A stretch of DNA of 63,211 bases, the filler included, from Bonamia ostreae (Eukaryota), in assembly GCA_040357525.1 (NCBI GenBank). It is 14 parts of 14 records of this genome, joined end to end, with 100 filler letters (N's around TTAATTAATTAA, not from the genome) between each part and the next. Parts side by side here need not be neighbours in the genome. Positions count along the whole stretch, not along the records: positions 1 to 4,454 come from JBDODL010000308.1; 13 more parts are not named here. One strand, written 5' to 3'. Positions 1,133 through 36,520 of the stretch are shown here, piece by piece (within the stretch, counting starts at the first letter, position 1; every line of letters starts with the position of its first letter). The position numbers and the translations under genes are program-made. The notes below the pieces were generated by a model that did no database searches, was not told where the DNA came from, and worked only from the letters and a program-made list of their open reading frames with translations.

Positions 1133-1395
1133 TCTTAAGCTAAAAATATTATAGCCAAATTAATTATGCTTTTTCAATATATTGTCAAAATGTTCATTGA
1201 TAAGTGGCTAAATAGTTAATAATAACAGTTTAAAATATAATAATGATATAAAAGCTTTTTGTGATTTTTAAAATGGCCAAAAAATGATAACGGGGATTCA
1301 TTGTAGTTACTATAAAAACTGTAAAAACTAAAATTTTTTAGCTGTAAATTGAATAACGGGAGGATAATTTTATCAACAACAAGATAATTTTAAAA

Positions 1396-3765
1396 ATGTC
1401 ATTTTCCGACCTGTTTTTTGCTTTGATAACATTTGTTAATTCTGGTCACCCCCAATATGGCAGTTTCAGCCAATATGACGGTTTTCATTTTGTAAAAACG
1501 TGAAACAGCCCATCCGTTTCCAATGGGATGGCCGGATAAAAACCAAAACGCAGAATATGTTTGCCAGCGGTATAATCGCAGATTGTGTTCATCAAAAGAT
1601 TTGGAAATTTTAGCTTACACCCAAAAAAGGGGGTTTTGTCTACTCGCATGGGCATTCGACATTCGTTTTAAGAAGGTTAGAGGCTTTTTGACGAACACTG
1701 AAAAAATGCCCTGTTTCTCAACAACGGGAGGAACTTATGAGTTGCCTCCGTATGGTCCGTTTCCACAAGTATTCTCATACACAAAAAATGTTCTCTATTA
1801 CATTTGCGTGATTAAACAATCTGAGAGAGAAAGAGAGTATGGTTTTTGCAAAAATTGGTTAAAGAATGCAGTGGAAACGGTTCTGATTATAATGGCTATC
1901 AATCGAAAACTGAAACCGGGGAAACCTGTCAATGGTGGGAGGTGCAGTATCCAAACAAACACATAGAAACTCCCGATAACAATGAAAATCCAGAATTTAA
2001 GTCTTTGCAGAAAAATTATTGCCGCAACCCTGACAATTCTGTGCGACCTGTTATTTGAGATAACTTTGTTGTGACAATAATTTAATAATTTTTATAGTTT
2101 TATGTTTGTTTGATAAATTGTAACAATGGCATATTTTAGTTCTAATAATGATTGTAACAATAATATATTATTGTTCTTTTTTAATTCTAATAATGATTGT
2201 AACAATAATATATTCTTGTTCTTTTTTAGTTAAAATAATGATTGTAACAATGATAATATTCTTGTTCTTTTTTAGTTAAAATAATGCTTGTAACAATGAT
2301 ATAAATTTAATGAAAAATAGTGGTGCTATCTTGCAAATAAATTAGGGAGAGAATACTGTGACATCACATGTAGTACATGTTTCAATTTTTTTAATAATTA
2401 TAAAAATGAAAAGTTGGAGATAGCAGTTTTTATTTGTAACAACGTTAAATCCTTTTATTTTCTATCGCCAAAACCATTTTTTTAGGCGGATTCTGTGAAA
2501 TGACGGTCTACGAATATCCTTATTTTTACGGGAAAAGCTGTACAAAAAATTTGGCTCTTGGACAATATGATATTTTCATGTTTAACAATCACGACGATTG
2601 CGACATGATTTTTTACACACAAATTCGCTCTTTCAAGGTAAGAGGCGATAGATGCAAAGCCAAAGTCTTTGGTCTTGACGGCCACAATGAGGATTTTTTC
2701 GGCAATGTTGACATCCCAGAATTATCATTGACAAACCTCACAAACCAGATCTTTTACGCTTTTCTATTTGAATTATCTGGTAACATTTAAATTCACACTG
2801 TTACAACAAAGCGGATGTAATCTTAACTACCTATTTTGATTATGTAAACAGAAGGAGTTTTGCGTATGATTATTCTTACTTGCACGTTTGTTCGTCAACT
2901 GAAGTCGACAACGGACTTAATATCGCCAAACTAGATTCGAACTCTCCAGATTTTGGTTGGGTGTATGAAGGCGAATGGACGATGTATTCCCACGAAAAAG
3001 TTACTCCGATGCCGGATAAAAAATCTTGGTGCTGTCTTGATGGTTTTTGATGAATGTTGTTAAATATGATTTGTAAAAATTTTGAAATAAGATCATTTAA
3101 AAACAAACTTGAAGATATTCAATTAAAAATTCAAAAAGAATTCCCAAAACTAACCGAAGAACTAGTTTATTCGAACGAGGCCTTTTCAAAATGCGCGGAA
3201 AAGACGAGGATAGCACCAACAGAACTGAGAGGAGTACAAATGGAATTCATTTATCGGCGAAGACTTTGCACTGTCAACGATTTGACTTCCCATTTTCACT
3301 ACAAAAACACAACTTTCGCAATGGGATTTGCTGCTTCAACGGAAAATGATGTCGTTTTGATTGGTAAAATTGGTGCAAATTTGGATGTTGTTACAAATTT
3401 GAATGGAAATACTCTATATCGCGTTTGGTGTTGTGATGAAGATTGTTATCCTGTTTTCTACCAATGCATTGAAGATAAAGATTGTTGTACTTTTAATTGC
3501 GTCAATAATATATGTGCTTGTTTTTGTTTAATTTTATAATTGATAATATTTTTGTTTGTTTTTGATTAAGAGATAAATCAAAATTTTTAAAGTTCCGGAA
3601 ACAACTGGTGGTGATGATGATGGAGAAAATGGCTCAGGGGAAAGAAAAATGGGTTTGTTGTCGAGAATAATTATTTTTTTGGTCGGTTTGTATTTTTTTG
3701 GTTGGATATTGAGATTTTGTTGTCCGAAAAGAAAACGGTTTGATCGACGCATTAAAATACATTGA
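1396..3765 (+). CDS. Modular type-I membrane protein: signal peptide, Link/CTL-like Cys modules, kringle, beta/gamma-crystallin-like domain, knottin-like domain, TM
   Basis: Kringle CSGNGSDYNG...GETCQWW...NYCRNPDNSVRP|WCY...EYCD. Crystallin-like TVYEYPYFYG...IRSFKV. TM LLSRIIIFLVGLYFFGWIL then RFCCP. Joined by GT-AG introns, e.g. 1842-1864. Confidence 0.8.
2117..2300. repeat. Intronic tandem repeat (~44-nt unit) inside the kringle-splitting intron
   Basis: taatgattgtaacaataatatatt...gttctttttta repeated about 4 times. Confidence 0.85.
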
Positions 3766-3915
3766 CAATTTTAACAGACAAAAATTTTTATTGAAAATAT
3801 CAAAAATCAATTGTTTTTTATCTACTAAATAAAAATGTGCAAAATTTAATAGCATTTTTCATACAAAATGATTTAAAAATTGTTATTTTAAAACTAACAA
3901 AAACGATTTATAAAA

Positions 3916-35940: not shown

Positions 35941-36520
35941 GATTTTTGTCTTAATTTTCAGTTTTTAAAAAATTTTGAATTTTTTTTAAATATTTTAAAA
36001 CTTTAAATTTTTACAATTTAATTAAAACATAGCAACCGTAAATACTTTTCGTTTTTTTTTTTAAATTACTTTTTAAATTTTGTTTTTTAATTTTTTTTTC
36101 ATAAATTTTTTTCGCGTTATATTTAAAAATTTAGTTTAATGTTTTTAACTATAAAAGTTGTTTTTTTTTTTTTTTTTTTAAAAAGNNNNNNNNNNNNNNN
36201 NNNNNNNNNNNNNNNNNNNNNNNNNNNNNTTAATTAATTAANNNNNNNNNNNNNNNNNNNNNNNNNNNNNNNNNNNNNNNNNNNNCGAATAATTGAAAGT
36301 GACAAGAGATGAAATCCATGTTATATCCATCAAAACAAAACAGATAAAAATGCTCAAATTCAATTGAAATAATTTTGCATTGAACAAATTTGGCTCGAAT
36401 TCCAATCGCCAGATTTTAGCCAAAGACAACATGTTTGAAACAATATTAACAAATGATGGGCAATCGCTCATTTTATAAAAATTTGGATAATAATTTTGTG
36501 GTTTTGAAGTTAATTTTTAA

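Follow-up and report, generated by a model that had tools for sequence, protein, structure and literature searches.

The locus at positions 1396-3765 of a stretch of Bonamia ostreae DNA (assembly GCA_040357525.1) raises the question whether a rhizarian protist has built membrane proteins from exchangeable exons, a process that one paper on the subject describes as practically restricted to animals (PMC8001218). We refer to this locus as gene 1 and compare it with a second locus, gene 2, on another contig. The best explanation, to which we assign a probability of about 0.6, is a membrane-protein family with Link-like modules, called WCC modules here, in which gene 1 is most likely one gene and was most likely built from exons with phase-1 introns on both sides (class 1-1 exons). 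The window, i.e. the whole stretch of DNA that was analysed, comprises 63,211 bases with about 30% guanine plus cytosine (G+C) and consists of approximately 14 contigs, each about 4.5 kb long, with N44-TTAATTAATTAA-N44 spacers between them. Gene 1 lies on the first contig (1-4454, contig 1) and gene 2 on the eighth (31762-36185). An exact look-up identified a protein encoded in the window as MES1919496.1, "hypothetical protein MHBO_001318 [Bonamia ostreae]". The published B. ostreae assembly has 12.24 Mb in 9705 scaffolds, an N50 of 1417 bp and 33.3% G+C (PMC11069148, Table 1).

Six-frame reading, with exons joined at GT..AG borders, gave for gene 1 a plus-strand model of 8 exons (1396-3765) and 565 residues in an uninterrupted frame. 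The predicted product contains, in this order, a signal peptide, an HPF module, a kringle (on two exons), the module of exon 5, a short WCC module, an FP...WCC module with a six-cysteine knot, a transmembrane (TM) helix and a CCP tail. Introns 1 to 7 measure 64, 23, 271, 113, 32, 96 and 73 nucleotides (nt) and have the phases 1, 1, 0, 1, 1, 1 and 1. The exon borders were compared with contigs from four sequencing runs, three of DNA (X1-X3) and one (X4) that is RNA only by guess and was treated as RNA-like since it alone shows GT..AG joints, and with the two models that the NCBI annotation has at this locus, P0013 (~1530-2058) and P0001 (2497-3765). The individual features of gene 1 are as follows.

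1321..1341, plus strand: intron of 21 nt (GT..AG) in the 5' leader, removed in an X4 contig and present in the DNA runs X1-X3
1396..1444, plus strand: exon 1, with the start codon and a hydrophobic signal-like peptide of 16 residues, from the model and hydropathy; gene 2 has its equivalent at the same place
1445..1508, plus strand: predicted intron 1, 64 nt, phase 1, joining the signal peptide to the HPF module, with the codon position and phase of gene 2 intron 1
1509..1841, plus strand: exon 2, HPF module of about 110 residues, probably a diverged module like Link or the C-type lectin-like domain (CTLD), from hhalign and its register with the other modules
1842..1864, plus strand: intron 2, 23 nt, GTTTTTG..AAAG, phase 1; the frame requires its removal, and the P0013 junction (...EREREY/ECSGNG...) is identical
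1865..2049, plus strand: exon 3, first 61 residues of the kringle, from Pfam Kringle and the plasminogen and HGF kringles of the PDB
2050..2320, plus strand: intron 3, within the kringle, 271 nt, phase 0, containing a minisatellite (45 nt x 3.8) at 2134-2303
2321..2372, plus strand: exon 4, last 17 residues of the kringle (WCY...EYC.I.C), from the alignment of spliced exons 3 and 4
2373..2485, plus strand: predicted intron 4, 113 nt, phase 1 as set by the acceptor, with three alternative donors, all of phase 1
2486..2779, plus strand: exon 5, module of 97 residues, possibly beta/gamma-crystallin-like, from a language-model lead and motifs shared with P0010
2780..2811, plus strand: intron 5, 32 nt, phase 1, with a GT..AG joint in X4 and in agreement with P0001
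2812..3042, plus strand: exon 6, short module ending in WCC, from hhalign; P0010 has the same module
3043..3138, plus strand: intron 6, 96 nt, phase 1, with a GT..AG joint in X4 and the codon position and phase of gene 2 intron 2
3139..3519, plus strand: exon 7, FP...WCC module (predicted Link/compact-CTLD fold) and six-cysteine knot, from AlphaFold 2 (AF2) and structural alignment
3520..3592, plus strand: intron 7, 73 nt, phase 1, with a GT..AG joint in X4
3593..3765, plus strand: exon 8, acidic Gly-rich stalk, TM helix, CCP-basic tail and TGA stop, from hydropathy and an AF2 helix

Gene 2 is read on the minus strand as 4 exons encoding 320 residues in an uninterrupted frame when spliced at GT..AG, with introns of 78, 451 and 22 nt, all of phase 1. 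The earlier note on this DNA had placed the paralogue at 31762-33463; its open frame runs from 33463 to 31950, and 31762 is the end of the contig, not of the gene.

33373..33463, minus strand: exon 1, with the start codon and a signal-like peptide of mean hydropathy 2.51 (residues 2-16)
33010..33294, minus strand: exon 2, HPW...WCC module, Link-like by profile match and predicted (AF2) fold
32559..33009, minus strand: intron 2, phase 1, 451 nt long and containing short tandem arrays, at the place taken by exons 3-6 in gene 1
32247..32558, minus strand: exon 3, FP...YCC module, 28% identical to gene 1 exon 7 (z 6.7)
32225..32246, minus strand: intron 3, 22 nt, GTTTTG..AAAG, phase 1, separating the YCC motif from the cysteine knot; the frame requires its removal
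31950..32224, minus strand: exon 4, four-cysteine knot, stalk, TM helix, Cys-rich CCP tail and TAA stop

Across the 22-nt intron the joined reading CCDRDYKRPGEPC matches the uninterrupted CCDRDYRMTGESC of a relative, P0003. A possible fourth intron of gene 2 lies at 32149-32129 on the minus strand (21 nt, GTTTG..ATAG, phase 1, in frame and free of stop codons); it sits at the position of gene 1 intron 7, and the open reading frame (ORF) of P0003 diverges there.

The C-terminal halves of the two genes are homologous. They align by blastp over 194 columns with 27% identity and an expectation value (E) of 2e-12 (composition statistics off), and the C-terminal modules, gene 1 exon 7 against gene 2, reach a Smith-Waterman z of 6.7, with a score that 0 of 300 shuffles attained. 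The likeness of the N-terminal HP(F/W) modules is weak (z 2.8, 8 of 300 shuffles). All sequence motifs quoted in the earlier note for the common plan of the two genes were found, i.e. (A/G)HP(F/W), FP..TE...C, RxCT..DL, (W/Y)CC, C..D.DC....C...IC, the TM segment and CCP. In both genes, intron 1 interrupts the codon immediately preceding "HP", and the intron in front of the FP module does the same ahead of "FP", so that two intron positions are shared. The four extra exons of gene 1 (the two-exon kringle, exon 5 and exon 6) fall exactly at one phase-1 intron of gene 2, the place at which the earlier note had put the kringle, the exon 5 module and the additional WCC module. No third member of the family was found among the ORFs of the window in a scan with a hidden Markov model (HMM).

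Base composition differs along the two genes, with 50-52% G+C in gene 2 exons 3-4, 45% in the 22-nt intron and 36-41% in gene 1 exons 2-8 and gene 2 exons 1-2. The long introns of both genes carry tandem arrays, namely the 45 nt x 3.8 array of gene 1 intron 3 (2134-2303, 92% match) and several arrays of 18-26 nt in gene 2 intron 2 (32607-32883). Both are rich in GTAACAAT-like cores, and no significant similarity between the minisatellites of the two introns was detected.

Relatives were sought with a profile of the two C-terminal modules among 1.84 billion representative sequences (E<=1e-3). Eleven proteins matched, nine of which were accepted as family members: three annotated B. ostreae proteins (P0001, which is gene 1 itself, P0004 and P0011), four from Logan and two from JGI. 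The remaining two, P0002 (4449 residues, 26 matching stretches) and P0008 (882 residues, 4 short stretches), were left out without inspection as probable repeat artefacts. P0010 (360 residues) is laid out like gene 1 exons 5-8, whereas P0003 and P0004 follow the short plan of gene 2. A search with exon 2 among proteins of near length returned only the window's own two versions of it, ORF and model, and a search for related DNA loci with a P0010 pattern gave 41 matches, none of which was confirmed. One locus (L001, from the search with P0006, 1821-1904) was rejected as a chance match of 28 residues on a contig of 64% G+C.

The intron phases provide the main argument for a modular construction. 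Nine of the 10 introns in both genes are of phase 1, or 7 of 8 distinct positions when the two shared positions are counted once, and the sole other intron, of phase 0, lies inside the kringle. At module borders phase 1 is found without exception (6/6 in gene 1 and 3/3 in gene 2, three of them RNA-supported), as the earlier note had stated. For a background, GT..AG candidates of 17-130 nt were collected in the window if 45 or more codons were open on each side and the read-through was closed; those no longer than 45 nt that had GTT or GTA donors were kept, the best of each cluster, while mixed-phase clusters and both genes themselves were dropped. Phases 0, 1 and 2 were represented by 13, 6 and 14 candidates (n=33), and phase 1 made up 15-23% over five settings (n=25-50). 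The expected excess of phase 1 over background is observed (6/33 in the window; Fisher one-sided P 7.5e-5 for 9/10 and 5.2e-4 for 7/8), the background being a rough one, obtained ab initio, unverified and including some false candidates, which weakens the comparison.

We propose that both loci of Bonamia ostreae would encode type I membrane proteins of one lineage-specific family. The defining unit would be the WCC module, the C-terminal copy of which would be followed by a knot-like mini-domain, a short stalk, a TM helix and a cytoplasmic CC(P) tail. Gene 2 would represent the short form (signal peptide, module, module, knot, TM), and gene 1 would carry, inserted between the two modules, the kringle, possibly a beta/gamma-crystallin-like module, and a shortened third copy of the WCC module. 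Each module would occupy its own exon (the kringle two) with a phase-1 intron at every border, so that a cassette could be duplicated, inserted or lost without a break of the frame. The family would have been built by duplication and insertion of class 1-1 exons, as in animal extracellular proteins.

The layout conforms to the formal rule for class 1-1 modules, and the building of the family from such exons is plausible; exon shuffling as its cause is what we infer from this layout. The Link-like module is clearly no relative of the kringle, and probably none of exon 5, which means that foreign cassettes were once placed between module copies with the frame intact. This is what exon insertion predicts, although it is not proof of it. 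A different history, somewhat unlikely in our judgement, would be one of descent, in which an ancestral Link-like module gained phase-1 introns at its borders (Patthy's "modularization"), was duplicated in tandem and received additional tiny introns at its linkers. Gene 1 exons 2, 6 and 7 and gene 2 exons 2 and 3 do appear to be copies of one module, and a bias towards phase 1 at signal-peptide cleavage sites and linkers is described in PMC8001218. Yet descent has to accommodate a kringle, and probably exon 5, unrelated to the module and lying between its copies with phase-1 borders on both sides; it would require either the insertion of a foreign 1-1 cassette or the modularization of an already fused gene, and gene 2 has a single intron where gene 1 carries these cassettes.

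Some observations do speak against exon shuffling as we propose it. Only two loci were read for their architecture; together with the layouts of P0010 and of P0003/P0004, these architectures all belong to one family. Three or four of the modules look like diverged copies of one Link/CTLD-like unit, and their common phase may be inherited from one ancestral exon. The ORF of P0003 lacks the 22-nt phase-1 intron found in gene 2. This absence, which also fits the descent history, shows that the intron is not ancestral to the whole family and implies that phase-1 introns at borders within modules are gained or lost without shuffling. The earlier idea of an exon-shuffled surface family of a protist consequently holds as far as the protist, the type I membrane appearance and the coincidence of modules with exons bordered by phase 1 are concerned, while shuffling between genes is one possible history beside tandem duplication of an ancestral 1-1 exon combined with intron gain.

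The kringle of gene 1, already recognised in the earlier note, is real. Exon 3 alone scores 53.9 bits with Pfam Kringle (PF00051), where the cut-off is 34.3 (E 2.3e-14; positions 3-60 of the 79 in the profile), and 71 PDB sequences match at E<=1e-3, plasminogen first and the HGF kringles among them. The six conserved cysteines and the CRNPD...PWCY...EYC..C end are complete only when exons 3 and 4 are joined, a join that is predicted; in this spliced form the domain matches mussel kringles over its full length (38 of 76 residues identical, E 1e-18). Among proteins of near length a kringle search returned only the query itself. Among longer proteins, where the filter demanded exact shared words of 5 residues, 2 of 6 candidates exceeded the threshold, both from Mytilus.

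It is tempting to ask whether the kringle cassette was captured from the bivalve host, being transferred horizontally and then lodged in a phase-1 intron of one of the parasite's genes. The two Mytilus proteins, 48-50% identical in their kringles, are the only ones above threshold in the word search of long proteins and have WE.QYP.KH and NYCRNPDNS in common with the Bonamia domain, and the search of the available literature gave no relevant paper linking Bonamia with a kringle. We nevertheless consider such a capture very unlikely. The word search was limited to the 6 candidates with exact 5-residue words and its ranking is biased, so that the Mytilus matches are not read as closeness; human plasminogen kringles align nearly as well, kringles are short and conserved, and the kringle exon has a parasite-type composition with parasite-type tiny introns around it. 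The same low standing applies to the wider scenario that the class 1-1 cassette system of Bonamia is still active and diversifies the ectodomain by intronic recombination, with a kringle that came perhaps from the bivalve host. A literature search for kringle and Rhizaria returned nothing relevant by title or abstract. The text of the genome paper contains neither "kringle" nor "exon shuffling" (PMC11069148).

For exon 5 the label beta/gamma-crystallin-like, which goes back to the earlier note, is retained as a possibility. A language-model search gave a first match of 0.94 with 193 of 256 features shared, recognition being below the mark set by the tool. The leads were clusters in which PF00030 or PF03995 (Crystall/Inhibitor_I36) occurs on 11-18% of the members, the first of them with PF00030 on 18%. 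The first Greek-key signature was read by eye in gene 1 and P0010, and the motifs Y....F.G.S and (R/N)S(F/I)K(V/I) are common to exon 5 and P0010. Pfam gave no match, the PDB sequence search gave one unrelated match (E 0.68), and the exon 5 part of the AF2 model is unreliable, with 10-residue block means of 24-48 in the predicted local distance difference test (pLDDT).

What kind of domain is the WCC module itself? It comprises about 100 residues and is marked by an (H/F/N)P start, R.C...D(L/I), GW and a final (W/Y)CC. No Pfam family matched this module at E<=1 in the pieces from the window or in nine relatives, Xlink (PF00193) and Lectin_C (PF00059) gave no match in any of the nine window pieces or nine relatives, and a language-model search with exon 7 gave no usable match. 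P0001 was modelled with AF2 from an alignment of 11 rows. The mean pLDDT of the model is 56.7, with 10-residue block means of 68-92 over residues 171-300. When residues 169-272 of this model were compared with structure representatives (VIA-align), 6 chains reached Z>=8, as listed here with the root-mean-square deviation (rmsd) where available.

Aggrecan G1 Link: Z 10.2, rmsd 2.3, 79 residues aligned
TSG-6 Link module: Z 9.0, 80 residues aligned of a 98-residue chain
LYVE-1, two entries: Z 8.9 and 8.8
Bdellovibrio Bd2740 C-terminal domain: Z 8.4
Invasin: Z 8.2

Below Z 8 the list is filled by C-type lectin-like domains. For gene 2 exon 2 the AF2 model has a pLDDT of 72.8, and the 5 chains at Z>=5 (7.1-5.3) are all Link modules. 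The models thus suggest for the WCC module the fold of Link modules or compact C-type lectin-like domains, and this prediction, for a module that has no Pfam family, is the new element here. Several results reduce the weight of this assignment. The P0001 model is unreliable in its first 170 residues. The alignment used for gene 2 exon 2 included the C-terminal modules, so that its result depends partly on them, and its best Z of 7.1 is within the range that the tool calls common. Foldseek found no PDB match at E<=0.001 for either the P0001 or the gene 2 exon 2 model, and of the structural check suggested in the earlier note it is the AF2 models, Link-like with Z up to 10.2, that gave a positive answer.

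The HP(F/W) modules appear to be diverged copies of the same unit. An HMM built from the C-terminal WCC modules only and run against 1393 ORFs of the window recovered gene 2 exon 2 with E 7.9e-4, whereas the value for gene 1 exon 2 was not significant (E 0.26); gene 2 exons 2 and 3 resemble each other with z 5.3. Gene 1 exon 2 aligned with the family by hhalign (P 2.8e-4, 33 columns over R.C...DL; reversed control 0.6) and is in register with the other modules in the family alignment. For the short module of gene 1 exon 6, 52 columns aligned in register by hhalign with P 1.3e-3, as compared with 0.43 for the reversed control.

The mini-domain after the C-terminal module fits an inhibitor cystine knot, with a connectivity that is predicted. 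Its cysteine spacing in exon 7 is C-x6-C-x5-CC-x3-C-x4-C, and six cysteines are also present in P0005, P0010 and P0011. The match to Pfam Toxin_27 is sub-threshold (18.4 bits against a cut-off of 25, E 0.0024). In inhibitor cystine knots the cysteines are connected 1-4, 2-5 and 3-6. The knots of gene 2, P0003 and P0004 have four cysteines and lack the first and the fourth of the six, a joint absence that fits the loss of one knot disulfide. In cysteine spacing gene 1 resembles inhibitor cystine knots such as Toxin_27 and the scorpion calcines, and gene 2, P0003 and P0004 do so in the joint loss of cysteines 1 and 4. The Bonamia knot, however, is part of a membrane protein, in which a larger domain is attached to it, and is no free toxin.

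With a signal peptide and a single C-terminal TM segment by hydropathy and an AF2 helix, the products have the appearance of type I membrane proteins whose ectodomains are rich in cysteine. In gene 1 the Kyte-Doolittle windows rise to 2.23 over residues 527-553, and the AF2 helix is at residues 319-340 of P0001. A glycan- or protein-binding membrane protein, at the surface or in a secretory organelle, is suggested by the signal peptide, Link/CTLD-like modules, kringle, TM helix and Cys-rich juxtamembrane tail. A location at the surface is presumed, and our guess for the function in this intrahaemocytic parasite would be the binding of host glycans or proteins on oyster haemocytes in attachment or uptake. 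Many signal-peptide proteins of unknown function have been reported for the B. ostreae genome (PMC11069148). A literature search on Bonamia, transcriptome, lectin and haemocytes found nothing on lectin-like proteins of the parasite among the papers listed.

All of this presupposes that gene 1 is one gene. The X4 joints skip exactly 32, 96 and 73 nt and correspond to introns 5, 6 and 7, i.e. 3 of the 7 junctions of gene 1, and the DNA runs X1-X3 show no GT..AG joints at these introns. X4 also lacks the 21-nt GT..AG segment of the 5' leader (1321-1341) and segments of 25 nt and 105 nt in a neighbouring gene on the minus strand; the removal of the 21-nt and 25-nt segments indicates that introns of 21-32 nt are real here. 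X4 cover is absent over 1649-1863 and 2094-2667.

The upstream half of the locus is less favourable to a single gene. One X4 contig (1257-1648) crosses intron 1 unspliced, and the spliced form is not among the contigs listed. Another (1864-2093) begins at the first base common to the spliced and unspliced forms and extends 44 nt beyond the donor of intron 3, where P0013 ends as well, so that a separate upstream gene or a truncated isoform is possible. None of the X1-X3 DNA contigs spans the intron 3 minisatellite in one piece, and the joins of exons 3-4-5, like all junctions of gene 2, are predicted from the sequence. The junctions that the earlier note wanted confirmed by transcripts are found in X4 for introns 5, 6 and 7, with intron 1 unspliced and the intron 3 donor read through.

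The NCBI annotation follows the division into two genes. P0013, with 170 residues, is labelled "threonyl-tRNA synthetase" and has Kringle as its sole Pfam domain; it splices the 23-nt intron 2 and then reads into intron 3 until a stop codon. P0001 (354 residues) is identical to the last 354 residues of the gene 1 model. Introns 2 and 5-7 are common to the public models and ours, while a signal peptide is absent from both public models and exon 1 is in neither. According to such a division P0013 would carry the HPF module and a kringle truncated in intron 3, P0001 would follow from the Met in exon 5, and exons 1 and 4 would be relics or chance. The presence of precisely these two models on contig 1, the end of the read-through X4 contig, 44 nt past the exon 3 donor, beside an AATAA-rich stretch and the retention of intron 1 in the other X4 contig are in line with it. 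However, P0013 would then have 3 of the 6 kringle cysteines (from the first Cys to CRNPD) and no signal peptide, and the missing end of the kringle (WCY...EYC.I.C) follows 271 nt further on, preceded by an AG and in a phase that is compatible. P0001 alone would be a cysteine-rich ectodomain with a C-terminal TM helix that starts inside a module and lacks a signal peptide, and the region 2373-2485 contains no start codon with a signal peptide after it. Gene 2, moreover, has the same plan in one piece. Two genes at this locus therefore seem unlikely to us.

A misassembly was also considered, in which contig 1 would join two loci across the minisatellite of intron 3. The interval 2170-2306 is spanned by no single X1-X3 DNA contig shown, depth is raised and loose ends occur at 2396. 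Short contigs nevertheless tile the repeat, and the two sides hold the two halves of one kringle in the correct order, strand and phase, which a chance misjoin would not give; we regard a chimera as exceedingly unlikely.

That gene 1 is one gene rather than two is likely for three reasons: the kringle is complete only when exon 4 is joined, exon 1 supplies a signal peptide in the right phase and at the same codon position as in gene 2, and the start Met of P0001 lies inside a module that reaches further upstream in P0010. The continuity of exons 1-2 and of exons 3-4-5 is inferred. The public annotation thus probably needs correction, with two truncated models, one of them misnamed, to be replaced by one membrane protein of 565 residues.

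How does this arrangement compare with known systems? Animal class 1-1 proteins such as plasminogen and tPA share with it the signal peptide, the disulfide-rich modules, the phase-1 borders and the kringle, and also the insertion of a cassette at the site of a single intron in a shorter paralogue. Bonamia differs in that the host of the cassettes is a rhizarian protist and the border introns of 22-32 nt offer a small target for intronic recombination. The internal intron of the Bonamia kringle (phase 0, between CRNPD....P and WCY) presumably does not have the vertebrate position. The WCC module, as predicted, is like Link modules and compact C-type lectin-like domains (TSG-6, aggrecan G1, LYVE-1, CD44 and the intimin/invasin tips) in its fold (~80 residues, rmsd 2.3-2.6, Z 8.8-10.2), in the order strand-helix-helix-strand, in having cysteines in the region of the first helix and in the last strand, and in its extracellular adhesion-type setting. 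It differs by belonging to no Pfam profile and by a signature of its own, (H/F/N)P...R.C...DL...GW...WCC. Apicomplexan modular adhesins (TRAP/MIC and the kringle-bearing CRMPs) likewise present animal-like adhesive modules on type I membrane proteins. Bonamia, however, belongs to an unrelated lineage and uses different sets of modules, and to our knowledge a tie between module borders and phase-1 introns is no described feature of apicomplexan adhesin genes.

If our explanation is true, surface-type proteins of a rhizarian would constitute an independent case of the phase 1-1 module rule, which PMC8001218 presents as nearly animal-only, and their introns of 22-32 nt would test the need for long, recombination-prone introns. 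A so far unnamed Link/C-type-lectin-like module would be defined in Bonamia and in unnamed public sequence sets, and the proteins would be candidate host-binding molecules of a notifiable oyster pathogen.

Some further features of the two contigs were recorded. Contigs of X1 and X2 leave the reference at 2396 (in intron 4) and enter it at 3577 (in intron 7), with at least about 255 unlike letters beyond each point. Positions 3782 and 3800 show further loose ends, and sequencing depth is elevated across 2236-2533 and 3577-3874. Taken together, this suggests a second genomic context for the segments of exons 4 and 8. The breaks at 2396 and 3577 would be explained by a second locus or haplotype that shares exons 4 and 8 but not the cassettes between them, or by unrelated repeats. 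In the scenario of a still active cassette system, such a locus or haplotype would have other sequence in place of exons 5-7, the block between two phase-1 introns. Joints 27->3775 and 69->3780 in X1 and X2 were disregarded, their sides being 21-25 letters in AT-rich repeats. Contig 1 opens with an AT-rich direct repeat (1-76 against 85-163, 90% identical).

Upstream of gene 1 a gene on the minus strand occupies 377-1045, with a MYND-type zinc-finger-like ORF at 377-949. Its two RNA-supported introns, one of 25 nt (GTTTTT..TAG, 451-475) and one of 105 nt (about 941-1045), lie on codon boundaries and are of phase 0. On the contig of gene 2, the 3' end of a convergent gene (31762-31925, plus strand) is cut by the contig end; it has a hydrophobic stretch, ends in ...VAQVWEWREQ and stops ~25 nt from the stop codon of gene 2.

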